Assembly: GCA_965207375.1 (NCBI GenBank)
Contig: OZ242274.1
Coordinates: 320,001 to 384,000 of the forward strand
Direction: 5' to 3'
DNA: 64,000 nucleotides
Origin: Nitrosopumilaceae archaeon
Lineage (GTDB): Archaea; Thermoproteota; Nitrososphaeria; Nitrososphaerales; Nitrosopumilaceae
The notes below the pieces were generated by a model. That model did no database searches. It was not told the DNA's origin and saw only the letters and a list, made by a program, of their open reading frames with translations. Position numbers and translations under genes: made by a program. Below are positions 5,001-60,060 of this stretch, piece after piece (position 1 is the first letter of the stretch; every line of letters begins with the position of its first letter).

Positions 5001-6113
5001 GGTGATGACTCTATTATTGTTCCCCCAAAAAGCTCTGGACAAATTGATGCCACAATTGTCGTACCACATGATTACGAAACAGGTGTATATAATGGATTTT
5101 TGAAATTTTCAAGCACTGCACATGATGTCAACGTACCTGTCAGCTTTGTTGTAACTGAAACTATAACTGATGACTATACAGTACTGTTTAGTGGCAAAGG
5201 CTCTAATGATATTTTGTATCATCCAGGTTTTATCGGGGGGGCATTTGACATGACTAGTCGCTATATGGCCGGAGACTGGCGCCAGTATTACTTTGACATA
5301 CAAAATTCAAATCTAAACACTGCTGCAATAGAGATCTCTTGGGAGCAAGATGACACAAGCCTTGCAGTATTTGCAATTGATCCGGAGGGAAGGATAGTTC
5401 AGAGCAATGTACCCTCGGGGGTTTTTGGACACTTTATGGGATGGCCTTCCATAGACTGGCTTGGAACATCGCCTTTTAGCCAGGGCGGTGGTTTTTTTCC
5501 GGTAACAAACAAGGATGATACCTCAACTGTACTGTATGTGCCACTAAATCAAACAGGGACATACTCGCTGCTAGTTCACTCTACGCTTTTTGGAGGCAAA
5601 TCAATCACTGACCCCATCACACTGTCTGCAAAGTTTACAACAATTACAGACAAGGATCTACCTCCAACAATCAATTTATCTGTGCCAGATTATATTCATG
5701 ATGATACTTTGATATATCCGAATATAACTGACAACAATCTGTCTAGTGTAAAGTTTTTTGCAAACGATATTGAGATTTTTGTAAAGGACGACAGGTTGGA
5801 CTTTGACCCTCTTCCTAATGACAACTATACTATGACTGTAACTGCATTAGATGAGGCAGGAAACTATACAGTTGAACATTTTATGTTTGTAAAAAATTTT
5901 ACAAATCATACCTATGAGAAGATCCAAAATAATACCTCTTTACAAGACGACACAAAGAAAGTCAGCCCAGATTTACAAAATGATTCCAAAGTCACTATAC
6001 CAGACACCTACCAGGACAACTTTGATCCTGCCATAATTATAGTGCCAACTGTGATCGCCTTAGGTATTGTGATTGCAGTTTTGATAAAATTGGGAAATTC
6101 ATCAAAAAAGTGA
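2091..6113 (+). CDS. Large membrane-anchored subtilisin-like (S8) serine protease
   Basis: Catalytic triad motifs VDTG, HGT, GTSMA; SAGNSG; signal peptide and C-terminal TM. Confidence 0.9.
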   Translation: MSKTYYDMPTAAIILSLVLMTSLVGTSYALIDHDLQLPQADYMPPSSGIFDIPIQATMPFDVKRYVIFGGGGVPDSISAVYRASSFNGFFAIALISEKEVPKLQSDGYYIVEDFELDFHDAPDGSRIGAITGSDFVHDEFGYTGDGVTVAIVDTGVDFSNLDLRSSLLRDDQNHPVMLDPDGQGIILTNNTFYAAIDDDGLLLDTKSIPEEAISSVYKNRDGIFLDIAQGGNGTEISIYNSFFPQAGESAVFHAKLTEDIKIGNDSHDYIVSKSGYYHLGMMYQGALQGSFARLQVVPVLVVDANLPGVYDTVIPDLSTSWQDYTRYDLPDGQQPQYDFDFTDEKPIVLGSGNEFLVYDSDDDGRIDYSAGTIGARVLDVYGVIENKTSAVEPHVLAVNGTLLYPIDPAGNYFGVMTDFEGHGTASAASVVSKGVNQYDIYNDTKKYSITAVAPGAKILPIKSLWFGDVVYSWLWAAGFENEKQNWEFTGEPRADIISNSWGISNFPNIQYAPGLDVISLILTVLSTPHSLDDDYPGVVMVVSAGNSGPGYGTIGYPNLAPFAISVGATTNNVFVGYGPFSGEPRFGNTTDHLNHVVDFSSRGPGIIGDPKPDIMGTGAHGFVPSTMLKLEKNSDAESFSLFGGTSMAGPIVAASAAVLMESMRDHQQEYDPFLIKNLLMSTATDIHNDAFTQGSGLVNLKNAVKFVKGKDVFLVYNDASYSNIQNILNMPIENINSTILNLDRFQLSHKNFNMMSWFGGHLSSGQRSTATFTVENPTNDTLEVAIYSQKLDLIKQSNYSGITKPKLQDRNLNAEDTYRPNYIALSDVKNFTDLGSFFDKTNPIPSDSELMILTLHFPFETFMNKTNDIYAEDLQISSLYLYDWQDHNDDTRVTSDELSMVSRGGSWGTVQQLRTSDPSTKFEGTPLVGIYPVPTKFSFWIADSGIDAVPMNYTLTASYYKKDTWEPVWIGDDSIIVPPKSSGQIDATIVVPHDYETGVYNGFLKFSSTAHDVNVPVSFVVTETITDDYTVLFSGKGSNDILYHPGFIGGAFDMTSRYMAGDWRQYYFDIQNSNLNTAAIEISWEQDDTSLAVFAIDPEGRIVQSNVPSGVFGHFMGWPSIDWLGTSPFSQGGGFFPVTNKDDTSTVLYVPLNQTGTYSLLVHSTLFGGKSITDPITLSAKFTTITDKDLPPTINLSVPDYIHDDTLIYPNITDNNLSSVKFFANDIEIFVKDDRLDFDPLPNDNYTMTVTALDEAGNYTVEHFMFVKNFTNHTYEKIQNNTSLQDDTKKVSPDLQNDSKVTIPDTYQDNFDPAIIIVPTVIALGIVIAVLIKLGNSSKK

Positions 6114-9010: not shown

Positions 9011-9871
9011 ATGGCAGGCATCGAAGTATATGATAATTCCTTGATTGAACCAATTGAGCTGCGAATGATTAGACCATCACAGTTTCCAGTAAGATACTCT
9101 GCAAGAAAAAATTCACCAGAATTGATAGCCCTCAAATCAAGCATTAAAGATCACGGCTTACTTCAGCCCATAGTTGTTAGGCCTCTAGAACACGGCTTTG
9201 AGATTGTGGCAGGTCATAGGAGATTTGCTGCATGCAAGTCCCTGCGATGGCGATTTATCACCTGTAAAATACGTGAATTCTCAGACAAACAGGCATACGA
9301 GATCCAGCTTACCGAAAACCTACAGCGAAAGTCAATGGATCCTATCGAGGAGGCTGAGGCCTTTGAAAAATACGTGATAGATTTTGGGTGGGGAGGTGTC
9401 AGTGATCTTGCCAAAAAGATTGGAAAAAGCGAGGAATATGTATCACACAGAATGCAACTTTTAAAACTTTCAGAGGAGGTCAAGGACAAAGTGACCAACA
9501 ATGATTTAAGCGTCAGCAAGGCACTAGAGCTCACAAACATGGATGCCTCTCAGGTTCAAATGGCAGATGAAATAGTTGAGAACAAACTGACCGTCAAACA
9601 AATCAGAAAGATGAAAAGCAAGCTAAAGACAAATTCAGATCAAGCTAGCTCAGGCGAACCAAAATCCAAAGAGGCCAACATTGTTAGAAAAAGCACACTG
9701 GCCCTGAAAATCACACTATCACGAATCGATGATCTTATAGAGGATGCACACAAAGTCGGTCCAAAGGAGCGGGTAGATCTAATCAAGTTTCTGATGAGCA
9801 TGCGAAGAAAGACTCATTCCATGATAGATGAGACTCTAAAGTACAAAAAGAATATTCGCAAAAGGCGTTAA
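9011..9871 (+). CDS. ParB/RepB/Spo0J family protein
   Basis: SIKDHGLLQPIVVR, IVAGHRRF, ENLQR motifs and HTH. Confidence 0.9.
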   Translation: MAGIEVYDNSLIEPIELRMIRPSQFPVRYSARKNSPELIALKSSIKDHGLLQPIVVRPLEHGFEIVAGHRRFAACKSLRWRFITCKIREFSDKQAYEIQLTENLQRKSMDPIEEAEAFEKYVIDFGWGGVSDLAKKIGKSEEYVSHRMQLLKLSEEVKDKVTNNDLSVSKALELTNMDASQVQMADEIVENKLTVKQIRKMKSKLKTNSDQASSGEPKSKEANIVRKSTLALKITLSRIDDLIEDAHKVGPKERVDLIKFLMSMRRKTHSMIDETLKYKKNIRKRR

Positions 9872-9889
9872 CTTACAGCTGATGTCGGC

Positions 9890-10429
9890 TTATTTTCCAA
9901 TAAAGGGTGGAGCCCACTCTTTGAGAAATCTTTTGTATTCTGCCTCCGTATAGGAGAGTGCATAAAGTGAGGCATCTGTCTGCGGTACAAAATCATACAC
10001 CTCATAGGTTTGGATTATGTCTCCAAACAAATTTCTGTAAATGTCATTTTCCTCGTCTCCCATATCTGAAGACAAAAATGACTTTACCGTAATCCAATCG
10101 TATCCGCCCCGAGTCTTTCCTGAAAAAATCACAAACGGTGCATCGTTGAGATATTTTTTGAGTCCCTCTAGTCTGCTTGGAAGGGCCTGCGAGGTTCTAA
10201 ACGTAACTAGGTCAACGCGAACCACTCTGCCAGGAAGTTTTTTTGAATCAACTGATATCGTATATTTTTTAATTACTCCATCTTCCTCTAAGATTTTTTT
10301 GCGTGACTCTATTTCTTCTTCTGAAACATTATGACCAAATCCCTTTAGAAAATCCCAAAGCTCAAAGGTGCCCTGTTTTGAGTTTTGACTGAGTGCAGAT
10401 ATGATTAACTCGTCTATCCTATCAACCAT
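9890..10429 (-). CDS. Lrp/AsnC family transcriptional regulator
   Basis: D-x-ID-x-LIISAL, LEEDGVIKKY N-terminal wHTH and GGYD ligand-domain motif. Confidence 0.75.
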   Translation of the reverse strand: MVDRIDELIISALSQNSKQGTFELWDFLKGFGHNVSEEEIESRKKILEEDGVIKKYTISVDSKKLPGRVVRVDLVTFRTSQALPSRLEGLKKYLNDAPFVIFSGKTRGGYDWITVKSFLSSDMGDEENDIYRNLFGDIIQTYEVYDFVPQTDASLYALSYTEAEYKRFLKEWAPPFIGK

Positions 10430-24453: not shown

Positions 24454-25565
24454 ATGGGGGGGATTATTTGAACAAGTGTTGATAGGCCTGGTGTATGTGT
24501 TACTTCAGATGTGTCACCTATTCCTTCATATAACATGTCGAGACCATTGAACACTACTTGATGTTCACCTACGCTGTAATGTCTATCTATAGTAAAATTC
24601 CATGATAATACTCCATTGGAATCTTCACTGAAAAAACACTCTGAGTTTGGGTTATTAACATGATGCCATTTACCAAGTGTAACATTATCGTATATGAGCT
24701 GATTCTCTTTCAGATGATTAAGAGAATCTTGTGAAACATACTTGTAGCAATTACCCTCACTCATATATACAATCCACATGTCTGAACCGTCAATTATTGA
24801 TATTGGTGGGTCTGGCAGTATGAGTTTAGCTGTAACAAATACAGTGTCACCTAAAGTGTAAATTTTCTTATCTGTCTTAATCCATGATTCTGCGGTTGGT
24901 TGTTCGTTTTGCGGTGCGATTAAATCGTCAGCACCTTTATTGTCAGGTTTAGTGGCCTTTCTGTCTAGTTTTTCCTGTAATTCCTCAATCTTGCTCTCTA
25001 GACGGTCAATCTTTTTGTTTTTTTGATCAAGTTTGTTCTTGGTCTCAACATACTTTGTTTCCTTTTGAGTATCGGTCATGGCTCTAAAATCTAAAATCCA
25101 TTGTGCGACTGTTTCTTGGATCTTAGTTGTAACATCTGTTATTGGATTTATGCTAGTTGGAATGTTTTGATTTTGACCCGTATTTGCAACCAATACTATG
25201 CCTGTCTTCCAAGGATGGACCATACAAAAGTATGGATAGGTGCCTGATTCAGTGAATTTGTGAGAAAATGTATTGCCTGCCATTACAATACCACTGTCAA
25301 ATCCATTTGGATAATCAACTCCGACCGTGTATGGATCGTTTAGGTCTCCTGCAGTAACAAAGTGCAATCTTGTATCGCTATTTTGCCAAGTCACAGTATC
25401 ACCAACATCAATTGTAACCAAATAGGGAATAAAACATTCTCGAGTGTCGTCACAGCTTGGAGCGTTTAAACCTTCAGGTATATCAACTGTTACTGTATCT
25501 GCAAAAGCAGGCGTTAATACTGAAACTGCTAAAACTGCGATAATTGTAATGTATAAAATTTTCAC
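24447..25565 (-). CDS. Blue (type 1) copper protein with coiled-coil and C-terminal extension
   Basis: Signal peptide; GDTVTWQN.D...H, YPYFCMVHPW cupredoxin motif; stop codon lies in the MITE. Confidence 0.75.
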   Translation of the reverse strand: MKILYITIIAVLAVSVLTPAFADTVTVDIPEGLNAPSCDDTRECFIPYLVTIDVGDTVTWQNSDTRLHFVTAGDLNDPYTVGVDYPNGFDSGIVMAGNTFSHKFTESGTYPYFCMVHPWKTGIVLVANTGQNQNIPTSINPITDVTTKIQETVAQWILDFRAMTDTQKETKYVETKNKLDQKNKKIDRLESKIEELQEKLDRKATKPDNKGADDLIAPQNEQPTAESWIKTDKKIYTLGDTVFVTAKLILPDPPISIIDGSDMWIVYMSEGNCYKYVSQDSLNHLKENQLIYDNVTLGKWHHVNNPNSECFFSEDSNGVLSWNFTIDRHYSVGEHQVVFNGLDMLYEGIGDTSEVTHTPGLSTLVQIIPPIS

Positions 25566-26376
25566 TGGATTTTAGGCTGAATTGAGAGTAATTAAATCAG
25601 GCGATAATGCACGGGTTCATAATGTTGATTATTTTTAAAATCTACGAGGCCTAAAAGCTCTAAGGAATCTGGTCGCTTTGCATATCTCATCGTCAAGGTA
25701 TTTTCATTATAATATTTTTCCAAAATTAAAACTAGAGTCTTCTTTTGTATCATAAATTCAGAATCTTCCAAATCAATTTTTAAAAACTATATTAAACCAC
25801 ATGGATTATGATGGAAAACAGTCGATTTGACACCAACTGAACCACGATTTGCATTCTAAACCCATCATAGCCTGTATTTGATAGAATCATTTTCAATTGT
25901 TAAATTTGTCGTATTTGACTTGTTACACTAGCATCCGCGTTTACCATTTTTGTGTACCATCTTTGTTCTTTGGTAACAAGTTACTTTTTGTTTTGTGGTT
26001 TTTATTTTTTGCAACATGTATTGTTTTGATGTACTATTTGATAAATTAACACATATGCATCAGCAAAATTTGATTTTTGAAAAATTATTATACTAGTGTG
26101 TTGTAGCATAATCGTGAACAACAAATTACTTTCCAAAACAAAAATAATTAAAGTTTGTAAATTGCATTCTTTTTAAAATCGAATGAAAAATGAGGTAAAC
26201 TTTTCCTGACCAAATAGTTGTGTTAAAAGTTAGTAAGAAAAGTCAAGTAATTTAGGCATATGTGGGCATGAATCTCAAAAATCAGAGACAAGGAAAATTT
26301 TATGAAAAAATAAACATGAAAAGCAAATTTAACATAAATATCACTAAGATCTATCAAATTATTTGATGATTTTTTA

Positions 26377-26765
26377 TTGACCATGCGTGATGCTGGAACA
26401 AAAAGTGCTGATGATATACACGAGGAGGTACTTGCAGAACTAGACAAAATTAATACAAAAGAATGCATAGATACTGTAAGCGATCTTTTACAGGACTGGG
26501 TTCACTATCTAGACAAGAACAACCTGTCCCAAAAACTGTTAGACTTTATTTTTCCGCACTGAACATATATTTGCACTAGAGGAACAAGACTTGCACCTTG
26601 AAATGTGTAGTCAAATACTGTATTTCTAGCAAAAATAAAAAAGAGGAAAAGTATTCTTTGACGGTACAAGAGATCCAAAAAATTTTAAATGTTGTCATGT
26701 GGAAGAAAAAGAGCCTATACCTGACACTTGCCTCATCAGGCATGAGAATAGGGGAGGCCGTACGA
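26377..26765 (+). pseudogene. Fragmented tyrosine recombinase/integrase
   Basis: LT.QEIQKIL...LYLTLASSGMRIGEAV box I motif; broken into several frames, C-terminus missing. Confidence 0.7.
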
Positions 26766-26942
26766 TATGTCCAGGATCTGGTATCGGCGAAAAAACTCAT
26801 CACCGGTCAGCCATCAAAGAAAAGATGGCGCTGCAAGTGTGGTGCAGGACCCTATGTTTCTGGTGAGGTAGCCTTTGCAGGCCAAGCTCATCGAAGAGTA
26901 TCACAAGGGCGACGGCCACGAGATAATTTTCTAGATCGGCAC

Positions 26943-27232
26943 TTTTGTTCCATGTTCCAGATGAATTATTACTCTCCTATAATGACAGATTTTACACCAA
27001 TTTTCAGAATATATGACTTCAATGATCACCTGGAACATGGAACAAAAATATCAAACTCTTCAAAATGGACTCTATTTGTCTGAAAGGCATCGATCATGTG
27101 GACTTTTTTTGTTCCACTTGTTCCACTTTGATTTTACCGATTTGCGAACTTTAGCCCAAAAATGGCAAAAATGGAACATACGAAATTCGCTAAAATGAAT
27201 TTGATCTGGAACAAGTGGAACAAAGTGGAACA
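26943..27232. repeat. Iteron-like cluster of ten TGGAACA/TGTTCCA heptamers in two inverted-repeat pairs
   Basis: 22-bp IR (1 mismatch) 26943-26964/27026-27047; perfect 18-bp IR 27108-27125/27207-27224. Confidence 0.75.
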
Positions 27233-27807
27233 CAGGCGTGTCATTTCGCAAATCAGACAAAAATTTTTGATCCCTCTTACGCCTAACCAGATTTGATACT
27301 ATGATTTACAGTGCCAAAATTACCCATATTTTTGATGGAAATCATTTTTTTGCGATCCGAAATAGTGGATATTTAAACCCCCAAAATAACTCAATTTCTG
27401 TGCCTATTTTGATCCCTGTTTGTTAACAAAACGGACAAAAACCCATTTTATGATATCTTTGATTTTTGATGGGAATATTTCAAATTGGCCAGATTGTGCC
27501 TCTGGTACCAATTTTGGGTCAAAATCGGCATTTTTTACGAAATTCGCACTCTCGGTACACTAAAGTGGTCTGCATAAAGAAAATAGATTAGATCGCTACA
27601 TGTTTTTGTCTGATTTGCTCTTTTTTGATCTCTATTTTCAAGGATTACAGATCCCACCTATACCTGACACTTTTCCACTTGCAAAACATCACAGACTCTG
27701 TCCAAAACTAACTTTGTTTCATCTGGAACACGCGATGATACTCTTTGATCCATACATTATACCACACAGGCACGAATTTGGTTTGTGCCAGATATCATTT
27801 CTGATCC

Positions 27808-28110
27808 ATGTCTGATTCGCTACTGCTTTTATCAAACATGATACACAACGGTACTATACTGTTAAAGTTCTATAATGTGACATCACAAAATATCGTCTGT
27901 ATATCAAAACCATACAAGCCATATTCTTTGGTGAATCATCCAAATGGTACCATACAAAAAACCAACAGTATCACCGGCCAAAAGATACGATGTAATAAAA
28001 TACCATACAGGGGCACATCTGAATCAGATTTAGAGTCAGAAATTAACCAAAGATACTCGTATTTGTGGGATGCTGGTTTAACAGTTAACCCACCAGCAGA
28101 TAACAAGTAA
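27808..28110 (+). pseudogene. Relic of family B DNA polymerase N-terminal domain
   Basis: LLLS...ILLKFYN..SQ.I....YKPY and ESEI...YSYLWDAGL resemble the archaeal PolB1 N-terminus. Confidence 0.5.
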
Positions 28111-29244
28111 CGATATTCGACAAAAAAAGTAAACCGAAACAGATCAATAAGGCCTGCCTCTGAGGACTTTATGATCAAACAAAACCAAAAGAGGCTGACA
28201 ATATAATGGATAATCCACTCACATATCAAAATATCGCCGCACCTTTGAAGAAGTTCATAGAACTGTGCGGTATCATATCAGACAGTGACACCATAGAACA
28301 TGATGCATCAGATATGACAAATAATGACTGGAACCGCATGTATCACTACATCAGCAGGAGGATATGCAGAAGGCATGAGAAAAACAACAGGTACATCTGG
28401 ATGCAATGGATAAGGCAAAGCAGGCCTACATGACGCCATGTAAAAATACGCATAATGTGGTAGTAGCACTTGATGAGTTTGACGTAAATATTCGTGATGA
28501 AAAATCTGAATGCATACTTGAAAATCATGATGCTGCTGTCAAATATATCATGATGATAGTAAAGGGGACATCACGCAAATGTAAACACGGCACGTCATGA
28601 CAGGATTGCACGCCAGAAAAGCCAAGTGAAAAATATATTGGATTTGCATGTAATTCAAACGAACTAGACGTTGCAGCATACATGAAAAGATGGGGAGTTG
28701 AAACAGGGTACCGCATGATTGAGGATCTTCGAGTCAAAACCGCAGTACTGTATACTGGTGCAAGATTACTGTGTTTTACAGCATCAATCATGGTATCATA
28801 ATCAATGGGTTGTAATTAATGCAGAATCTGGTTTTGGATTGGGTGACTCTAAATGGTGTGGAATTTCATTTGTCACACTTGAGTTTAAAATTACAATTAT
28901 ATCCGAATATCAGATCAATCCCAAGCCTCCGCCGGATATTGCAGCAGATTCTGCGTTGCTGGTGGGTTAACTGCTGATTTAGGCAGTGTTATATGTCTGG
29001 ATTACCTAAATTAATTACCCGTACTCGAATCCTTTGGGCCACGGTTTGTGGTAATACTAGGGGCGTAATGTGGGTACGGACTTATTTTATCATGGGGAAT
29101 CAGGGGCTCATGTGAATGTAGTATCTTATTTTATAACGCGATTTAATTTATTATTAATTCTAGAGATCAAATCCATTGTAATTGTTCCATCCGATTCATA
29201 TTTTCTGTTATTGGACCATGCAACAATATCAGACAGTATGTGCA

Positions 29245-29627
29245 CATAACCAATATCGATAGGCCAGGGAACCTCAGAAATAATCATGATTGAGGACAAC
29301 AAGATACTTGATGGTCAGAGTCTGGATTGGGCCTCTGAATTTATCACACACAAGATAAACCGATTTGCATATCTTGATACAAAGATGTTGTTACAGCACA
29401 AAGATGTTTGTGCAAAATATGCCAAGGCACTAGCTGAGAATATAGCCACAGAGACAGAGGCAATGGCATCTGCATACGGTTATACAAAAGACATCATAGT
29501 ATCTGGCGGAGGAATTCTGATTCCAAGGGTGCGCCAAGAACTCCAATCAAGACTAGGAAAATATAACATCAAGGTTCCAGATGATCCCGTGATGAGCAAC
29601 GCCGAAGGCCTTTACAGGCTGGCATAA
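29245..29627 (+). pseudogene. ParM/StbA-like actin ATPase C-terminal fragment
   Basis: Frameshifted phosphate-2 motif ID(I)GQGTSEI, IIVSGGG, DDPVMSNAEGLY. Confidence 0.7.
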
Positions 29628-29757
29628 TCTCCTTTTTTATTTTCTCAATTTAGTTTTTACACATGCATAAAATTATCAAAACATCTAGGGGATAGGGAAA
29701 GTTTGATTCTCTCTGAAAAGTAATAGAATCCGAATTATTTAATTCTGTTGAAAAACA

Positions 29758-29841
29758 CGCCGAGAGAGGGATTTGAACCCCCGCCACTGGAATGTGAGTG
29801 GATCATAAGTCCACCGTCATACCAAACTAGACCATCTCGGC
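29758..29841 (-). tRNA. Class II tRNA with serine-like body and UAU anticodon (nominal tRNA-Ile(TAT))
   Basis: GCCGAGA/TCTCGGC acceptor, GTGGA-CTTATGA-TCCAC anticodon arm, 15-nt variable region, GGGGG-TTCAAAT-CCCTC T arm, G73. Confidence 0.85.
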
Positions 29842-30365
29842 ACAAATTTTTACTAGTCAATTAATATAATAAAAATGCCCTGACCATTCCAGTCAAATCA
29901 GGGCTTTTAGTCAAATGTGAGACACATAAGACACGGACAAGTAATCTTGACCATCATTATTAGATAATTGCCTATTAAAAAGAATTGGATGGATTTTTTA
30001 CTACATCAATACGATATGGAACTGTCTTTAATTATACTAGATTGGCATATCTTGCCAATTATGTATCAAGAATTGTATTTTTGAATCTAGTTTCAAAAAT
30101 ATGATGCATATGATCGGGTTATTCTGGGCAGAATTTTGGCTTTAAAAGTAAACCAGATTTGAGAATATGTGAGTGAGATACGATTCTCCAGCGTTAATTG
30201 TTGGTAAAACATCAATATGCAAATTTTCTCTGGATTGCCCGTGCCTAGATTACTGCCTATACCAGCAGATCAATCACACATTATCAAAGCAATCACACAT
30301 TAGCAGAACATAATCTTCTCCGAGTTGTCACTGTTTCATCACACATGTAACTTTGACATTAGAGT

Positions 30366-31590
30366 TTATTGCACGTACAGTGCAGCGTTTGATATTACTG
30401 TCCTCCACTTTTGTCCGTGTATAGTTATACCTGCAGCCTCTGCAGGCGTCTTGCCTCCAAGACTCGAGTGACACCGCATGAAATTGTAATAAATATCACA
30501 TCCTGCAAATATTGGCGAGTTTTTACTTTTAATGCCGCGTCTGGGTCGTTGTATAGCACGTAATGTCCCGTTGAATCTTTCTCAGACATTGTTGTTGTTC
30601 TTTTTGGAAATTCCTGCATTTGATATGTGTGTGCAATGTTGATGTATCGCGTTTGGTGCAGCATACACTGATTCAAATGCTTGTGCATATGAGGGCAGGC
30701 CATCGCTTACAAATTCTGTAGGTTTCTTTCCGGCACGGGCTGCTGCAGCTTTGAGTAGGTTTTCTGCATTGTGTCCGTCCTTGCAGTCTGCAACCTCCCA
30801 TGCTAGTAAAAATCGGGTATCATAATCAGTCTCTGCAAAAAGATAATTTTGTTTACCTCTTATTGAAACGTATTCTTCGTCTGCACAGAATCGATTGCCT
30901 GTATTAATTGAAAGTGACATCAGGTATACATACACCATTGTTACAAATTTGATTATCCATCTGTATATCGTAGATATACACTCCCTTTTGTGCTAGCGTG
31001 TCTTGTATTGCACTAGGTGTATGTCCCTTATAGTAGGCATCAAGTGCATCTGTGATTGCCCATGGTATAGTTTGCATGTGTTCCATGCCTCCCTTGTACC
31101 CAAAGACACGATTGCAATTTTTGCATTGGTATCGTTGCGTAGTGCCATGTCTACGCTGTATGTGACCATATTTTATGATGTGTTCGTCACCGCAATGCAT
31201 ACAGTGTGATGGAATCTCTATTAGAACTATTTCTGTGGTTTTTTTCTCAGTATTGTCATCTGCATCTTTGGGCTGTTTGTCCTGGCAAGGCAGCTTAGCT
31301 GCATCTTTGGATTGTTCATCAATTATTGTCTCTGCATCTCTGTCTACAGTATCTGCAATTACTGCTAGGATATGCTTGCATTGAGCCTGTCTGTATTTGT
31401 GATCTGGACAGTCACAGGACCAAGAATTTTTTTTCTGTATCACGGTATATCTGGTGTTATCCTTAGATTGGGACTGTACTGTGTAATGGTTAGGTTTGAC
31501 TTTTTTTATTGCATTTTGTGTTTCTAGTATTTTCAAGGCACGATTTCCACGCCTCTGTGCACCCTTACTCCAGGATACACGTGTACTCAT
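30366..31590 (-). pseudogene. IS6-like DDE transposase with N-terminal SWIM zinc finger, disrupted
   Basis: CDCPD...CKH SWIM, zinc ribbon, ADE, SDGLPSY, NNNV*ERFNGTLR, TPAEAAGI; frameshift near 30975 and stop at 30582. Confidence 0.8.
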
Positions 31591-31837
31591 CCATCTAGTA
31601 ACTCTTGCCATTTTGTCAGTACTGCGCGTAAGCAGTACCGATGTCTTGTTTCGTATAGCCTCAAATTTTTCGTGTAGTTTAAATTTTGATCTTGTATATG
31701 ATTTTTGATATGTTAGTCCCATCATTGCGAAATTCGATGGGACTACATGTCGTGATACATTTGGATCATGTGGGTTAACAAATTTTGAAAAAATGGTTAA
31801 ATTTTTGATCTCTTTTACCTGCACAAGAACAAACTAT

Positions 31838-33551
31838 GTAACAATTGAAGAAATTTTGTAACATTCCCACTTTCTAAAGTTCCTTATATAGTCAGGCAGT
31901 AAAGCATAAGGATCACCACTATCAGCATAAAATATGCTGCCAGGATTTGATCTTGAGGGAATAGATTGGAAGAATCCCGATGTCAACAGGCTTTTCGAGG
32001 TTCTTACTGAAAAATTTGATCAAATGGATAAACAAATTAAAGATCTACAAAAAGACAATCATCTAAAAGATGTAAAAAGTGAACAAGTGATTGCAGAAAA
32101 TAAACAGCTAAAAGAAGAAATGGTTCAACTAAAAAAACTCATAGCAAAGCTGCAAAAGAAAAAAACAAGATCCAGTCATGTCAGTAGCTATAACACCAGA
32201 GAGTACAAGGGATACCCAAAGATCAAAAAACAAAAGACACAGCCAAAATATACACAGCAAGAATCTGAGACTAACAATCTAACCATAGATCACAAGTTTT
32301 GTCCACAATGTGGTAATGCTCTTGCAGATTCATCAAGCAAATACACCAGAAACGGTGAATCAATAATAGACGGCAAATGGTCTAACGTCAATATGACCAT
32401 TGTAGGCAGATACTGCAAAAAATGTGCACAAATGCAATATGCAAAACCTGTTGACTTTTTGTCCAATGAAAAATTTAGCATCACTATAATGGCAAGAATT
32501 TCTACAATGAGACACCTGACTATATCGTATGGCAAAATACAGAAACTCTTGCAGATGTTTTACGGCAAAAATATGGCAATCTCTACACTAGAAAGACTTG
32601 ATGCGCAAGCCTCAAAATGCCTAGAACCGCTCTACTATTCGCTTCTTGATGAGATTACCAAGGCAAAAATCGTAGGAGGTGATGAAACAGGATGGTATCT
32701 AAACGGCAAACTATGCTGGGCATGGGTGTTTCATTCGATATACACGGTAGTATATCACATCTCACAATCTAGAAGCAAAATGGTATCTGAGACGTTTCTA
32801 AAGGATTTTGAGGGCATACTAATGGGTGACTCTCATCCTGGATGGAGTGTTGCAGACATACTTCAAAAATGCCTGCTACACTATTTCAGGGACATGTACA
32901 GAACGCTTGAAAAAAATGACAAAAAAGAATTTCAGAGCTTCTTTGATGAACTATACAAGATACTAAAATCTGCAATAAAGCTTGGCAAAAAACATGACAC
33001 AGTACAGGACATTGCAAAGGGCAGTATAACCAAACTGCAAAAAAGAATCAATGCACTTGCTACAGGAACATATGAGGATGAAGATTGTCTCATATATGTA
33101 AAGCGACTAAAGCGTGAGGGTAACTCTTTGCTGACATTTCTAAAATATGATGGCGTGCCGTACCACAACAACGCAAGCGAGCAGGCAATGCGCATATTTG
33201 CCATAATGCGAAAAGTATTCTACGGTAGTCGCTCAGAGAAAGGCCTCAAAACCACAGAGATACGTCAAAGCATATTTGCCACATGTGAAAGGCGCGATGT
33301 AAATCCGTATCCGTTTGTCAAGGAATATCTGCGTGGCAATATCAAAGAAATCCCCATGCCAAAAGTCACAGTTGCTGCATGATATAATCAAATGTACAGT
33401 GTATAATACACAAAATTTGATGCTGTATGATCATTTCTATAGTCTGGATATGTTCTGTGCCGGTTCATTGTCGTAAACTGCACTAGGGTTTTGCATGCAG
33501 TTTCATGGATCATCTAAAAACCAGAGTAACTTCAGAAGGTCGATCTGTTAC
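31838..33551 (+). mobile_element. Second IS66-family element (different isoform)
   Basis: Imperfect ends GTAACAATTGA / TCGATCTGTTAC; no matching 8-bp TSD, so the left boundary is uncertain. Confidence 0.65.
31934..33382 (+). CDS. IS66 family transposase
   Basis: Coiled coil, CPQCG zinc finger, GDETGW, QKCLLHYFR, HNNASEQAMR. Confidence 0.92.
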   Translation: MLPGFDLEGIDWKNPDVNRLFEVLTEKFDQMDKQIKDLQKDNHLKDVKSEQVIAENKQLKEEMVQLKKLIAKLQKKKTRSSHVSSYNTREYKGYPKIKKQKTQPKYTQQESETNNLTIDHKFCPQCGNALADSSSKYTRNGESIIDGKWSNVNMTIVGRYCKKCAQMQYAKPVDFLSNEKFSITIMARISTMRHLTISYGKIQKLLQMFYGKNMAISTLERLDAQASKCLEPLYYSLLDEITKAKIVGGDETGWYLNGKLCWAWVFHSIYTVVYHISQSRSKMVSETFLKDFEGILMGDSHPGWSVADILQKCLLHYFRDMYRTLEKNDKKEFQSFFDELYKILKSAIKLGKKHDTVQDIAKGSITKLQKRINALATGTYEDEDCLIYVKRLKREGNSLLTFLKYDGVPYHNNASEQAMRIFAIMRKVFYGSRSEKGLKTTEIRQSIFATCERRDVNPYPFVKEYLRGNIKEIPMPKVTVAA

Positions 33552-34155
33552 GATTTCTCTTAGAGTACAGTAGCAAGTACGATGATCCTTGTGTAAAATA
33601 TTCAGAGATAGCAAAATATTTTTTCAAATACTATTGGCTACAAGAATGTAAATCAAAGCTACGACAGGGACCACAAAATCAGGCAGTTGGAGTAATAGAA
33701 AAGATAAGAGAGGAATTCAAAAAAGATTCGTATCCTGAAACGTTTGAGGAGATAGAAAAAGAAGAAGAACAAAAAATAAAAAATTGCATTAAAAAAATCA
33801 CCCCCATATGCCGCAAGGACGTAATACACAGATTTCAGGGGAAACGTGAGGAGAGTAAGATATTTTACAAGTATTTTGCCAAAGATTACAAGGACAAGTC
33901 AGGTAACATGGGAACAGATCCCAAGGGTGGTATACTGTTAAACCCAGACGCAATGCGATTCTTCAAAAGAAACTTTGTACCGCTATACAAGTCAGTAATT
34001 CTTGAATGGATACGTTTTCTTGACAAGAAAAATTTTGGTGTGCCGTATATAGTAGACAAAATAGAGGGAAACAATACAGGCCCAAGGGATCAGAAAAGAT
34101 TCCTCAAATATCTTAAACTGTTTGAGGATAGGTGTTTTTACTGTAATGACTCTTT
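33552..34155 (+). pseudogene. HNH endonuclease, 5' part (N-terminus removed by the upstream IS66)
   Basis: Stop-free frame FLLEY...KYYW...CFYCNDSL ending at the IS66 TSD. Confidence 0.85.
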
Positions 34156-35649
34156 GTACTTGTTCACCTATTTTTGAGCATTTTTGGCCCTAAATGTACC
34201 GAACCAGCTCTGCTAGATAATCCTGTCCCAGATTCTTCCAGGTAGTAACACACGTATACAGATTGCCTCTACGCTCCATACTTTTTTCAGATCTGAGACA
34301 TCCACGTATTCTCCTGCACACGACATACTCACGCAGGCTCTGCTCTGCAAGATTGCTTGTAGATGGTATACGAGGGTCTATGACAAACCGGAACATGTCA
34401 GGTATGGCCCGTGACAGTTTTGCTACAAATTTACCCACAATTTCATCATTGGCATACCTTTTGACAAGGTTACGTGTTCTTTTTTCCAATTGTACAGCAT
34501 ATGATTCTCTGTAATCAGGTGGTTTGTCTAGGACATGTTTGCCGTCATGGTATATTTTCTGTAGGCATTGTAGTGTATTTTTTGCAATTTTAGAATCTGG
34601 ATTCTTTTGTGATATTGTTTTGATTTCACGTATTAGGTGCGCGTTACATCTCTGGATGATATATCTGCGGTATGGAGGCCATCCGTCACAGGTAATGATT
34701 ATATCTTGTGAGTCACCTATTATTTCCTTGAGTACGTCTGCTCCTCTGCTGGGATTAATTATATAGAAATTCTCACTTGTAATTGGATTATGAAACGTCC
34801 ACAACCATATAGTCTTTCCATGCAGTCGCTCTGATGTCTCATCTGCTATCAGAATCTCGGCTTCCTGTATCTTTTCTTTTATCTCATTTGCAGGCACAAA
34901 TAACGCATCAGAGACTGTATCTATGATGTTTTGAATACCTCCTTCAGATATTTCGATTCCACGTCTTTTCATGGCCTCCTTGTTCATACGTACCGGCATG
35001 CGATGTATGTGATTATCCATTATCTCCTTTATCACTTCATTTCCAAACTGACCCTTTTTTGGAATGTCAACCTCGGGTGTAATGTCAGTAGCTCCACAGC
35101 AGTTGCAATGATACCCATGAATCTTGTGCTTGCAAGTATGTGGAGGAGGAGTTTTCACAATATCAGTTATTATCCTGATTTTGGTGTCTGTATGGTGTAT
35201 GTCTTGAGAACCACACTTGGTACACGTGTCTAATTTGTGCTCTTTTTCTTCATCTACTTTGACCTTGCGGGCTACACCTGTGCGACCAGGTTGTCCTCCC
35301 TGTTTTTTTCCAGTAGATTTTTTGTTCTCTGCACGTATTTTGCGGTCCTGCTTGCGTGTAATGGAATCCTTAGATGGAGGAGTATTGGAATTGTCATGAT
35401 AGTTGTCACGTTTGGTAAGCTCTTGAATTTTTTTATCTTTTTGTAGTAGGAGGTCATCTTTTTGTAATATGATTTTTTGTAAACTTGATACTAGAGATTC
35501 AAGAAGAAGGACTTTTCGGTGTTCCTTTTTGTATGCACTTTTCCAGTTGATGGTACTCATTATACAACTTGTGAGTCAGAATGATTTAGATCTGATGGTG
35601 ATCAAAATTTGAACAAATGGTGAAATTGTAGACACCACGTGAACAAGTA
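34156..35649 (-). mobile_element. IS66 element copy 2; last base of its TIR displaced to 37071 by an IS110 insertion
   Basis: Near-identical to 16637-18129; TSD GACTCTTT at 34148-34155 and 37072-37079. Confidence 0.95.
34190..35560 (-). CDS. IS66 family transposase (intact)
   Basis: 456-aa ORF with leucine zipper, zinc finger and DDE motifs. Confidence 0.93.
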   Translation of the reverse strand: MSTINWKSAYKKEHRKVLLLESLVSSLQKIILQKDDLLLQKDKKIQELTKRDNYHDNSNTPPSKDSITRKQDRKIRAENKKSTGKKQGGQPGRTGVARKVKVDEEKEHKLDTCTKCGSQDIHHTDTKIRIITDIVKTPPPHTCKHKIHGYHCNCCGATDITPEVDIPKKGQFGNEVIKEIMDNHIHRMPVRMNKEAMKRRGIEISEGGIQNIIDTVSDALFVPANEIKEKIQEAEILIADETSERLHGKTIWLWTFHNPITSENFYIINPSRGADVLKEIIGDSQDIIITCDGWPPYRRYIIQRCNAHLIREIKTISQKNPDSKIAKNTLQCLQKIYHDGKHVLDKPPDYRESYAVQLEKRTRNLVKRYANDEIVGKFVAKLSRAIPDMFRFVIDPRIPSTSNLAEQSLREYVVCRRIRGCLRSEKSMERRGNLYTCVTTWKNLGQDYLAELVRYI

Positions 35650-35751
35650 TCCATGTGCCATATTATTAAAAATTCCCCACGTTTTTAATCCCGACATGTA
35701 TCCATGTGCCATATTATTAAAAATTCCCCACGTTTTTAATCCCGACATGTA
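35650..35751. repeat. Exact 51-bp tandem duplication of the IS110 right end
   Basis: TCCATGTGCC...CCCGACATGTA at 35650-35700 and 35701-35751. Confidence 0.95.
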
Positions 35752-35912
35752 TGGCATAGCCTAATTCTAATTTCCAAACCGCAAGGGTCCAAAGATAAAG
35801 AAGCGAATACTTATCCATCCGAGTCAATCGCAATGATTACTCATTATCATTCTTCATTCTTTTATCAGGCATACTGCAATTACAAAACGAGGCAACAAAC
35901 TAGGTCTGTTCC
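35701..35912 (-). ncRNA. Candidate IS110 bridge/seek RNA
   Basis: Three predicted hairpins; internal loop carries an 8-nt match to the element circle junction. Confidence 0.55.
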
Positions 35913-37061
35913 TCATACATGTTCCCGCAACCGGGTATCCTGACTGTAATTTGTAATAAACTCTCTTCTCTCCTTGAGCATTGTGTGAATCATTCGTAAC
36001 ATCTTAGAAGCAGCAGCAACTGTTGCCTTTGATGTTCCTCTCTTTTTTGCAATCCTTATGAAAAATTTTGAAATATCAGAATTTGGTGCACACCTTACAT
36101 GAGACAGGACACTTTCTACTAGAACCCATCTGCATATGTTGCTTCCAGTATGTGTTATGTGTCCATAGTGTACCGTGTTTCCTGATGATCTAACCGATGG
36201 AACCACACCAATATACGAGCACAGCTTGTGTGATTTGACAAATCTTTCAATTCCGTCTATTGTACATGATATCACCAGTGCAGTATATGCTCCAACTCCT
36301 GGAATGCTTTGTAGTAAAGTTGCATCTTCATTTTCCTTTGCTGCCTGACGTATTCTGGCATCAGACTGGAGTATTTTGTCATTGATGAACGTAATTATAT
36401 CCAAATACGCATTTATCCTATAGTCATTTATTGCTCTGACCTGTGCAAGCCAAGGCGTGTAAAATGGTGCACCTGAGGGCTGGATTGATTTTTGTAGTAA
36501 AATTCCATGGACTGAATTTTTCAACCCTGTTCTGTGACGGACCAGAGTATATCGATAGTTTACCAAATCCCTGTTGTCCATGTTTTGTGCTGAGGGCACG
36601 TGGCACGGTATAGTGTATCCTCCTCTGAGTAAATCTGCTAGAATTTTAGCATCTACCTTGTCTGTCTTCTTTTTGGATTCTGCAATGAGTCTATTCATAC
36701 GAGGATTGGACAGTATGACATCTAGGTGTAACTTGTCTCTTATTTGAAAAAATGCAGCCTTCCATACAGATGAGGATTCAATTACTAGTTTTGAATTTGG
36801 ATGTATGTATCCTAGGCAATCCTTGATGTCCTCTGGATTGTTTCGTATCTTCTTGTTGGCCAGTTCATTACCGTCTGCATCCATGATAGATATCTGAATG
36901 GTCTTTTTGTGAACGTCTAGACCGACAAAACAGGGTTCCATAGATACCCTCAATTTTACGGTTTTGTGTTTGTTTGCATTGGTGCTTGAGCGGGATCTTG
37001 TAGAACGGGATCTTGTAGAACTTGGACTACTGCCATCATCTAATTTCCTTGATCGGGGCAC
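35913..37061 (-). CDS. IS110 family DEDD recombinase (start may be ATG at 36941)
   Basis: GLDVHK, IESSS, KKTDKVDA (DEDD); SIPGVG, RSSG serine, VAAASKM. Confidence 0.93.
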   Translation of the reverse strand: MPRSRKLDDGSSPSSTRSRSTRSRSSTNANKHKTVKLRVSMEPCFVGLDVHKKTIQISIMDADGNELANKKIRNNPEDIKDCLGYIHPNSKLVIESSSVWKAAFFQIRDKLHLDVILSNPRMNRLIAESKKKTDKVDAKILADLLRGGYTIPCHVPSAQNMDNRDLVNYRYTLVRHRTGLKNSVHGILLQKSIQPSGAPFYTPWLAQVRAINDYRINAYLDIITFINDKILQSDARIRQAAKENEDATLLQSIPGVGAYTALVISCTIDGIERFVKSHKLCSYIGVVPSVRSSGNTVHYGHITHTGSNICRWVLVESVLSHVRCAPNSDISKFFIRIAKKRGTSKATVAAASKMLRMIHTMLKERREFITNYSQDTRLREHV

Positions 37062-59985: not shown

Positions 59986-60060
59986 GGACTCGTTGCACAG
60001 TCTGGATAGTGCAGGCGGCTTCGGACCGCCAGGTCGAGGGATCGAAGCCCTCCGAGCCCT
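59986..60060 (+). tRNA. tRNA-Arg(TCG)
   Basis: GGCGG-CTTCGGA-CCGCC anticodon arm; T arm GAGGG-ATCGAAG-CCCTC; one acceptor mismatch. Confidence 0.85.

Follow-up and report, generated by a model that had tools for sequence, protein, structure and literature searches.

Transfer RNAs whose body and anticodon point to different amino acids have been reported from nematodes (Hamashima et al., 2012, PMC3333845) and from some bacteria (Mukai et al., 2017, PMC5389517). The subject of this report is a gene of this kind from an ammonia-oxidising archaeon of the family Nitrosopumilaceae, a class II tRNA (that is, one with a long variable arm) which combines a serine-type body with the anticodon UAU and which lies in the window, the whole 64,000-nt stretch of DNA that was analysed. 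It is best read as an archaeal counterpart, in the canonical 7/5 fold, of the bacterial allo-tRNAs and the nematode nev-tRNAs. Mismatched natural tRNAs, which also occur in CUG-clade yeasts, matter as raw material of genetic-code change and as a possible source of deliberate mistranslation.

In CUG-clade yeasts, a tRNA-Ser(CAG) joins a serine body to a leucine-type anticodon and G37, and decoding is ambiguous; this is a fixed, chromosome-wide reassignment in a eukaryote, unlike the patchy gene associated with mobile elements that is described here. The bacterial allo-tRNAs likewise possess a long variable arm and serine (or alanine, G3:U70) identity elements together with non-serine anticodons, and UAU is the commonest of their diverse sense anticodons (Mukai et al., 2017, PMC5389517; reviewed in PMC7609411). 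Their occurrence is patchy, broken copies and linked transposon-related genes are described, and one allo-tRNA(UAU) pseudogene overlaps a transposon-related open reading frame (ORF) (PMC5389517, PMC7609411). As far as sequence features can tell, the window gene has the same combination of serine identity elements, non-cognate anticodon and long variable arm. It is nevertheless no allo-tRNA by definition: these have an 8/4 or 9/3 layout of acceptor and T stems (a 12-bp branch), which the 7-bp acceptor stem and the 5-bp T stem rule out. Moreover, the allo-tRNAs of these accounts come from bacteria (Clostridia, Proteobacteria and Acidobacteria), while the present gene is archaeal and the partner of its family is one specific IS6/IS240-type DDE transposase, arranged in a fixed tRNA-then-transposase order.

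The nematode nev-tRNA-Ile(UAU) and nev-tRNA-Gly(CCC) are class II tRNAs with a canonical cloverleaf and the anticodons of class I amino acids, and occur as weakly expressed extras beside a full set of normal tRNAs (PMC3333845; reviewed in PMC4033280). The window tRNA resembles them in being such an extra; they differ in that they derive from tRNA-Leu, are charged with leucine and are nematode-specific, with no transposase linkage reported in these two accounts, whereas the present body is serine-like. In Archaea, a 2018 survey of 167 genomes describes tRNA(UAU), which would read the same codon AUA, only from Korarchaeum and Nanoarchaeum, beside the agmatidine system of tRNA-Ile2(CAU); the Korarchaeum gene resembles its own tRNA-Ile(GAU), and that of Nanoarchaeum has no clear relative (PMC6000648). 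The window tRNA differs from both in its class II body, G73 and G37, and in belonging to a genome with TiaS. To our knowledge, Korarchaeum and Nanoarchaeum lack TiaS, and their UAU tRNAs are of class I. A survey of thaumarchaeal mobile elements treats tRNA genes as integration targets and not as cargo (PMC6563490). Literature searches turned up no archaeal class II tRNA with such a mismatch; cases could stand in the supplementary tables of PMC5389517, PMC6000648 (S3) and PMC6563490 (S1/S2), which the searches did not cover.

The gene is real and intact. An earlier note, made from the letters of this DNA, had described a class II tRNA with TAT, G37 and G73, perfect acceptor and anticodon stems and a TATA-like element upstream, and this description is correct (Table 1), although it leaves unmentioned two small blemishes, a U13-U22 mismatch in the D stem and a variable-arm stem of only 3 bp; the note had quoted the RNA sense of a gene that lies on the minus strand. 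ARAGORN calls four tRNA genes in the window, one of them as tRNA-Ile(tat) at 29757-29842 on the minus strand, a warning that anticodon-based tools will label the gene tRNA-Ile. The Rfam model RF00005 covers it from end to end (model 1-71, 59.6 bits against a cutoff of 29, E 2.2e-10). In this alignment, the acceptor stem (7 bp) and the anticodon stem (5 bp) are free of mismatches and the variable region measures 15 nt; the T stem has five pairs, one of which is G-U, the linker 8-9 between acceptor and T stems has the normal two bases, and the anticodon loop CUUAUGA holds UAU, G37 and A38. Because contigs of three public runs (X1 and X3 from one study, X4 from another study under another organism label) show 0 differences across the tRNA, TAT is not an assembly error, and it stands where a misread serine or leucine anticodon had been considered. 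An energy-only fold forms the acceptor and T arms and rearranges the centre of the cloverleaf (z -2.71); the cloverleaf call is based on the covariance model and on covariation within the family, not on the thermodynamic fold. As for the flanks, canonical tRNA genes of the genome have A/T-rich TATA-like elements at a similar upstream distance, and many have similar T runs downstream. About 60 nt on the 5' side of the tRNA can be aligned with the closest homologue, in genome G394 (155 nt, 74.8% identity, tRNA included).

Serine identity is described as G73 plus the variable arm, G73 being an antideterminant for archaeal leucyl-tRNA synthetase, and isoleucine identity as anticodon, discriminator and N6-threonylcarbamoyladenosine at position 37 (t6A37) (PMC9976931). 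By its identity elements and profile scores, the body of the UAU tRNA is serine-type and not isoleucine- or leucine-type, in keeping with what had been proposed from G73 and the long variable arm. Our own profile hidden Markov models, built from 28 distinct canonical tRNA-Ser and 8 canonical tRNA-Leu of this genome and its relatives, give it 44.4 bits as serine and 11.8 bits as leucine, compared with 82.2 and 23.2 bits for canonical tRNA-Ser and 33.6 and 92.5 bits for canonical tRNA-Leu, while the genome's tRNA-Ile(GAU) and tRNA(CAU) do not match the serine profile at all. Shared with the genome's canonical tRNA-Ser are G73, G1:C72, C2:G71, G30:C40, the length of the D loop, the 15-nt variable region and the T arm with its GGGGG T stem, and over its last 27 nt the UAU tRNA matches the 3' ends of tRNA-Ser(UGA) of relatives at 96% identity. 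There are also differences: canonical tRNA-Ser have the anticodon NGA or GCU, a conserved 4-bp variable-arm stem and a GCAA-type loop, the last two of which are missing from the UAU tRNA; those of the genome itself are identical to it at only 55-59 of 84 positions overall; and they are kept among relatives, where the UAU tRNA is not conserved.

Several other identities were considered and do not fit. A tRNA-Ile, whether of the GAU, agmatidine-CAU or UAU type, is at odds with the class II body, G73 and G37; the acceptor stem shared by the genome's tRNA-Ile(GAU) and Ile2-like tRNA(CAU) differs from that of the UAU tRNA and ends in A73. Leucine descent or identity, the criterion for nev-tRNAs, is incompatible with G73, with the low leucine score (11.8 bits versus 92.5 for canonical tRNA-Leu) and with the lack of the conserved leucine variable-arm sequence. 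Nor is the gene a tRNA-Leu(UAA) with a mutated anticodon, as that tRNA is present, with introns, at position 902510 of C1, the contig to which the window belongs (C1:902510). A tRNA-Sec would be expected to have a 9/4 fold, a long D stem and UCA, and the 7/5 fold, the short and imperfect D stem and UAU exclude it. Finally, the variable arm could have been the spliced intron of a class I tRNA, a finding that the earlier note had named as fatal to its reading. This is not so: the 15-nt region accommodates no bulge-helix-bulge, its length is that of canonical tRNA-Ser, all three pairs of the variable-arm stem covary in the family and the intron search of ARAGORN returned no intron.

The UAU tRNA is not the decoder of AUA in this cell and is dispensable for normal AUA decoding, since TiaS, an Ile2-like tRNA(CAU) and a full serine set are all present. 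C1 (2.16 Mb, 38% G+C, in an assembly of four contigs) encodes tRNA-Ile(GAU) and a tRNA(CAU) that has the acceptor stem of tRNA-Ile(GAU) and is hence Ile2-like; TiaS is found in the genome as a 438-aa open frame (109.5 bits). The serine tRNAs are complete (GGA with an intron, UGA, GCU and CGA), as are the leucine isoacceptors, of which UAA sits in a two-intron gene misread by ARAGORN. A second, dedicated seryl-tRNA synthetase (SerRS) was not found, the genome having one match to Seryl_tRNA_N; the SerRS gene lies in the region of C1:891095-891412. In 897 ORFs of at least 250 aa, AUA is a frequent codon, at 31.3 per 1000 and 37% of those for isoleucine, so that an efficient seryl-tRNA(UAU) would touch nearly every protein. 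When three genes of the urease region were aligned to those of G004, a genome of the same genus, their 31 ATA codons faced 25 Ile, 4 Val, 1 Leu, 1 Thr and 0 Ser, which rules out a genome-wide reading of AUA as serine; judged from this alignment, AUA is isoleucine here. Both the agmatidine route and the improbability of full recoding had been anticipated from the window.

The gene had been viewed as a singleton, a view that does not survive comparison: class II tRNAs with a mismatch of body and anticodon (UAU, GAA, CAG and others) form a patchily distributed archaeal family, of which it is one member, and what needs explaining is thereby no longer a single odd gene but a whole class of mobile tRNAs. 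Its own sequence type is rare. In a whole-gene BLAST against 60 relatives, the full-length matches were only other tRNAs at 72-78%, with no conserved orthologue, and the 5' 62 nt have one real homologue, that of G394, among 400 other genomes of the Nitrosopumilaceae (a match in G034 is a tRNA-Pro); the nearest homologue of the tRNA is identical at 66 of 85 positions. A pattern search for the loop CUUAURA with class II spacing and a T loop had matches in 64 of 401 Nitrosopumilaceae genomes and 0 in the reversed control. Most of these (genera g11, g6, g9 and g26) were tRNA-Lys(CUU) with a canonical intron and were removed before counting. Intact class II UAU genes occur in G002 and G004, both of the window's genus, in G394 (2), G395 (2), G396, G376 and G158 (3); the window's genus thus has three different sequence types (window, G002, G004). 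One 5'-truncated copy in G395 (302 kb) and one partial copy in G158 (1509 kb) are broken, G148 and G394b also count among the truncated or mismatched copies, and some copies are degenerate.

A scan of all prokaryote species genomes returned at least 118 matches, and the counts given here are for the 80 matches listed. Among these are 14 intact class II tRNA(UAU), all with G73, 5 of them from Nitrosopumilaceae or 'Thaumarchaeota' records and 9 from outside the family, namely from Methanoperedens (3 species, with near-identical genes), Methanothrix, Methanoregulaceae, Bathyarchaeia, Thermoplasmatales and Iainarchaeum (2); no intact bacterial class II tRNA(UAU) is among the 80. Within the Nitrosopumilaceae and beyond, G73 is present in nearly all intact class II UAU tRNAs. 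The exact 19-mer of the anticodon arm has 0 matches in the prokaryote species genomes, and metagenome contigs gave 0 matches both to the variable arm plus T arm and to a Ser-like UAU pattern. Scans of viral sequences, with 18 and 22 pattern matches, contain one real class II UAU tRNA, on contig L026. Across 13 family members, 95.2% of cells in the alignment pair, as opposed to 65.7% in shuffled alignments (none of 500 reaches the observed value) and 39-57% in slid controls, and both sides have changed in 18 of 24 pairs, including all five of the anticodon stem. These compensatory changes imply that intact members are kept as tRNA-shaped molecules.

The linkage to a transposase across phyla is the most interesting aspect of the UAU tRNA family. 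A module was defined as a class II G73 tRNA directly upstream, on the same strand, of a PF13610 transposase gene of about 370-395 aa, and such modules are present in G395 (2), G004 (one with UAU and one with GAA), G394 (2, both with CAG) and Methanoregulaceae. In G395 (twice) and G004, the gene of a 373-aa transposase starts 40 nt past the tRNA(UAU), and tRNA and transposase share 98-99.8% identity between these two genomes despite their placement in different genera. The GAA and UAU modules are homologous from about 180 nt on the 5' side of the tRNA through the transposase. In Methanoregulaceae, a class II tRNA(UAU) is followed after 325 nt by the same-strand gene of a 394-aa transposase that aligns along its whole length with the Nitrosopumilaceae protein at 32% identity (E 4e-57). 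Overall, 7 of 22 UAU loci have a PF13610 transposase homologue within 1.2 kb of the tRNA. On the evidence of this gene order and homology, the family has a link to the transposase and passes from genus to genus, which agrees with the element-borne function that the earlier note had suggested among other possibilities. Several archaeal lineages have serine-type tRNAs of canonical fold whose sense anticodon is UAU or another, and some of these tRNAs travel with one transposase family. A private recoding of the transposase was considered and rejected: in transposase genes next to tRNA(UAU), 0 of 10 ATA codons face Ser in the alignment, Ile or Val standing there instead, and in those next to tRNA(CAG), 0 of 11 CTG codons do, their counterpart being Leu. 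Separately, the 65-kb viral contig L026 has its class II tRNA(UAU), with G37 and G73, at 5334-5418 and a homologue of the IS240-type DDE transposase (40% identity to the G395 protein) at 9417-10310, 4 kb from the tRNA.

Other mismatched tRNAs accompany the UAU gene in the same genome. At C1:1677242-1677325 lies a Ser-like class II G73 tRNA with the anticodon GAA and the acceptor stem of the UAU tRNA, 114 nt upstream of an insertion sequence (IS) terminal repeat and a truncated copy of the IS6/IS240-type transposase gene on the same strand. It is identical to the tRNA(UAU) of G396 at 70 of 85 positions and has the same anticodon stem, which indicates that the anticodon changes on one body. In 41 relatives chosen by kinship, the matches listed include class II loops with GAA, UAU, GCA, UUC, CUA, CCU and CAG, with GAA at least as frequent as UAU among those listed (there are 73 more); a dominance of UAU was seen in five genomes that had been picked for UAU hits, a biased sample, and is not found in the 41 relatives. 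Serine and alanine are identities independent of the anticodon, and the bias to Ser- and Ala-like bodies hints that chargeability matters.

Further genes of this sort were observed. A second class II GAA gene, with a 14-nt intron, lies at C1:1996875-1996975 and a broken 3' fragment at C1:1372449-1372494. Five class I tRNAs with an alanine-type acceptor (G3:U70, A73) have the phenylalanine anticodon GAA (C1:1341226-1341299, 1355323-1355396, 1407365-1407438, 1444064-1444135 and 1974999-1975072), and two odd genes are related to them (C1:234287-234360 and 823191-823261). Each of these genes has a near-copy of its own anticodon stem-loop about 45 nt upstream, and about 200 nt of upstream sequence are shared among the copies. 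In G005, class II-spaced loops occur at C1:947296, 954157, 1145199, 664624 and 318412, with GAA in three identical copies and one other and GCA (Cys) in one, and in G022 (G022:C1:1094150-1094193) a class II-spaced loop UU-CUA-AA precedes a Ser-like T arm, possibly that of an amber-reading tRNA.

On balance, we favour the reading that the UAU tRNA is accessory, transposon-associated cargo of serine type, which may be charged with serine and would decode AUA only weakly. It was most likely acquired horizontally, as transposon cargo, its family members often standing next to an IS6/IS240-type DDE transposase. The putative promoter of the gene itself would drive transcription, the transcript would then be processed, and the single SerRS of the cell would serylate it, because G73 and the long variable arm are serine determinants and SerRS ignores the anticodon. 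Reading of AUA would be weak, because G37 cannot become t6A37 and tRNA-Ile2 already serves this codon, and any replacement of isoleucine by serine would consequently be low-level or conditional. The selected benefit probably falls to the element rather than to the routine translation of the host. In yeast, tRNA-Ser with GAA or GAU are described as lethal on accumulation, with G37 variants tending to be less toxic than A37 ones (PMC6125640).

A number of observations weigh against this reading. Recognition by SerRS is not assured, given a serine-profile score of about half that of canonical tRNA-Ser (44 versus 82 bits), a variable-arm stem of just 3 bp and a D stem of three Watson-Crick pairs with a U-U mismatch at the fourth position (13-22). 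With AUA at the frequency given above, an efficient seryl-tRNA(UAU) would be very harmful, and the persistence of the gene may mean that it does not decode at all; six allo-tRNA(UAU) bodies made into amber suppressors are described as inactive in E. coli (PMC5389517). The invariant CUUAUGA loop of the family is in part a product of the search pattern. As to cargo, 15 of 22 UAU loci have no transposase within 1.2 kb (several of these loci are only 2-8 kb long), transposase copies free of the tRNA exist at 1037 kb in G395 and as one of two in the Methanoregulaceae genome, and for the terminal repeats of the IS only the right end could be defined (IS6-like, GGTTCTGTG...), no left repeat that encloses the tRNA being found. 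The window tRNA itself is not in module position, its transposase being frameshifted and situated upstream (340 nt), and about 10 other near-full-length copies of this IS in the genome have no tRNA. Transposase matches cover 14.4 kb of C1, so a random point would lie within 536 nt of one with a chance of about 2%, a figure that is weakened by the position of the tRNA in an IS-dense stretch; its proximity to the transposase in the window could be coincidence.

Unlikely, though surviving best among the alternatives, is a non-translational role, in which a tRNA-shaped RNA would serve the IS itself and not act as a ribosomal adaptor, for instance as a processing or termination insulator before the transposase gene, as a cofactor or recognition element of transposition, or as an addiction- or toxin-like device. 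The recurrence of the same-strand order with three anticodons and in two phyla (spacer 40-48 nt, in Methanoregulaceae 325 nt) speaks for such a role, as does the inheritance of the module as a unit, the two copies of G394 being 77% identical with the tRNA included. Against it stand the position of the window tRNA outside a module, the many transposase copies without a tRNA (about 10 here, and those of G395 and Methanoregulaceae noted above), the TATA-like box that the transposase gene has of its own between tRNA and ATG, and the lack of a terminal inverted repeat that would place the tRNA inside the element. Moreover, that the bodies are only Ser- or Ala-like, identities which survive a change of anticodon, and that G73 is kept point to selection for aminoacylation.

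It is also improbable that the gene is a relic, decaying or neutral, which began as a stray serine-type tRNA copy, acquired a mutation in its anticodon and was left among insertion sequences with no function and little or no expression. Its location in an IS graveyard would suit a relic, and so would the lack of an orthologue of its sequence type (G394 alone of 400 other family genomes matches the 5' 62 nt, and identity to the closest homologue is 66/85), the U13-U22 mismatch, the 3-bp variable-arm stem and the truncated or mismatched copies elsewhere in the family (those of G395, G158, G148 and G394b given above). However, acceptor and anticodon stems have no mismatch, all five pairs of the T stem form (one as G-U), the promoter- and terminator-like flanks are intact and about 60 nt upstream can be aligned with G394b. 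The compensatory changes across the family amount to structural selection on intact copies, and the same loop is found on different bodies in distant archaeal lineages, with near-identical genes in three Methanoperedens species.

Very improbable is the last alternative, which the earlier note had raised as a novel tRNA-Ile on a serine scaffold: the anticodon is a strong determinant for isoleucyl-tRNA synthetase (PMC9976931), AUA makes up 37% of isoleucine codons, and mobile elements and viruses often carry tRNAs (a class II tRNA(UAU) lies on the 65-kb viral contig), and the tRNA might boost AUA decoding in an AT-rich genome or for the genes of mobile elements, yet its discriminator is G73 where the tRNA-Ile(GAU) and Ile2-like tRNA of the genome have A73, G37 excludes t6A37, the body is class II while the genome's Ile tRNAs fail the serine profile, TiaS and Ile2-like tRNA(CAU) are already in place, the archaeal tRNA(UAU) of the 167-genome survey are confined to Korarchaeum and Nanoarchaeum and annotated there as tRNA-Ile (PMC6000648), and an isoleucine role cannot explain close relatives of the same body type with GAA or CAG.

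The favoured reading of a serine-type transposon cargo has a bolder extension, which we regard as doubtful: IS6/IS240-type transposons would carry class II tRNAs as working cargo, charged with serine (a sister group with alanine) and reading AUA, UUY or CUG, by which the element imposes a controlled code ambiguity on its host for its own benefit. Such ambiguity would perhaps depend on stress or copy number, and the gain might be addiction or conditions that favour transposition. If true, then mistranslation encoded by transposons would, taken together with the bacterial allo-tRNAs, be a general strategy found in more than one domain. In any case, the family offers a concrete system for asking why mobile elements carry such tRNAs, whether for decoding, as toxins or as structural RNAs.

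In the window, the tRNA sits on the margin of a stretch rich in insertion sequences (Table 1), within a single-copy island that has multi-copy repeats on both flanks. The distal end of the nearest IS copy is 340 nt upstream of the 5' end of the tRNA, on the same strand. This IS has about 10 near-full-length copies in C1, and its transposase, which is 42% identical to that of G395 (tblastn), is 536 nt from the tRNA. The fragments of the other adjacent multi-copy repeat have no Pfam match in the window. No second copy of the 3' end of the tRNA, of the kind of an att-like repeat, is present in the window, which rules out an integration scar. The IS-dense patch (26000-37000) directly follows a urease gene cluster, and the urease neighbourhood of G004 also has a class II tRNA(UAU), of another sequence type and orientation.

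Table 1. Coordinates of the UAU tRNA gene, its parts and its neighbours in the window.
Feature	Position	Strand	Basis or remark
Class II tRNA gene (long variable arm), 84 nt, 7/5 cloverleaf	29758-29841	-	ARAGORN, Rfam RF00005, run contigs, family covariation
Anticodon UAU, followed by G37	29805-29807	-	Rfam alignment
Variable region	29783-29797	-	Rfam alignment
Discriminator G73	29758	-	Rfam alignment
TATA-like box TTTTTATTATATTAA, putative promoter	29861-29875	-	-34 to -20 from the tRNA 5' end; function putative
T5 run, putative terminator	29751-29755	-	Two bases past the discriminator; function putative
Single-copy island of about 1.1 kb with the tRNA and a 113-aa ORF	29095-30173		blastn of 25500-31000 against the genome
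113-aa ORF, weak sub-threshold match to BadF/BadG-type ATPase	29286-29627	+	Pfam
Multi-copy IS with IS6/IS240-type DDE transposase split into overlapping ORFs (30904-31824 and 30582-30938)	30182-31857	-	Pfam PF13610/PF00665, SWIM
Fragment of another multi-copy repeat, with internal deletion	28082-28992		blastn; 5-6 copies, full ones with a 401-aa ORF
IS66 family transposase	31934-33382	+	Pfam PF03050
IS66 family transposase	34190-35560	-	Pfam PF03050
IS110 family transposase	35913-37061	-	Pfam PF01548, PF02371

Two minor observations concern the assembly and another tRNA of the window. The contigs C2, C3 and C4 (2.14 Mb together) encode tRNAs of eukaryotic appearance, among them a Ser-UGA (C4:187580-187661) and clustered genes for Arg and Thr; long ORFs are very few there (16, 55 and 68 of at least 250 aa), none of the IS copies of C1 is present, and the three contigs resemble DNA from a different organism, probably a eukaryote, binned with the archaeon. 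At 59986-60060 on the plus strand of the window, ARAGORN calls a tRNA-Arg(tcg) that has an A3-C70 mismatch and stays below the Rfam gathering score in both the window and the whole genome.

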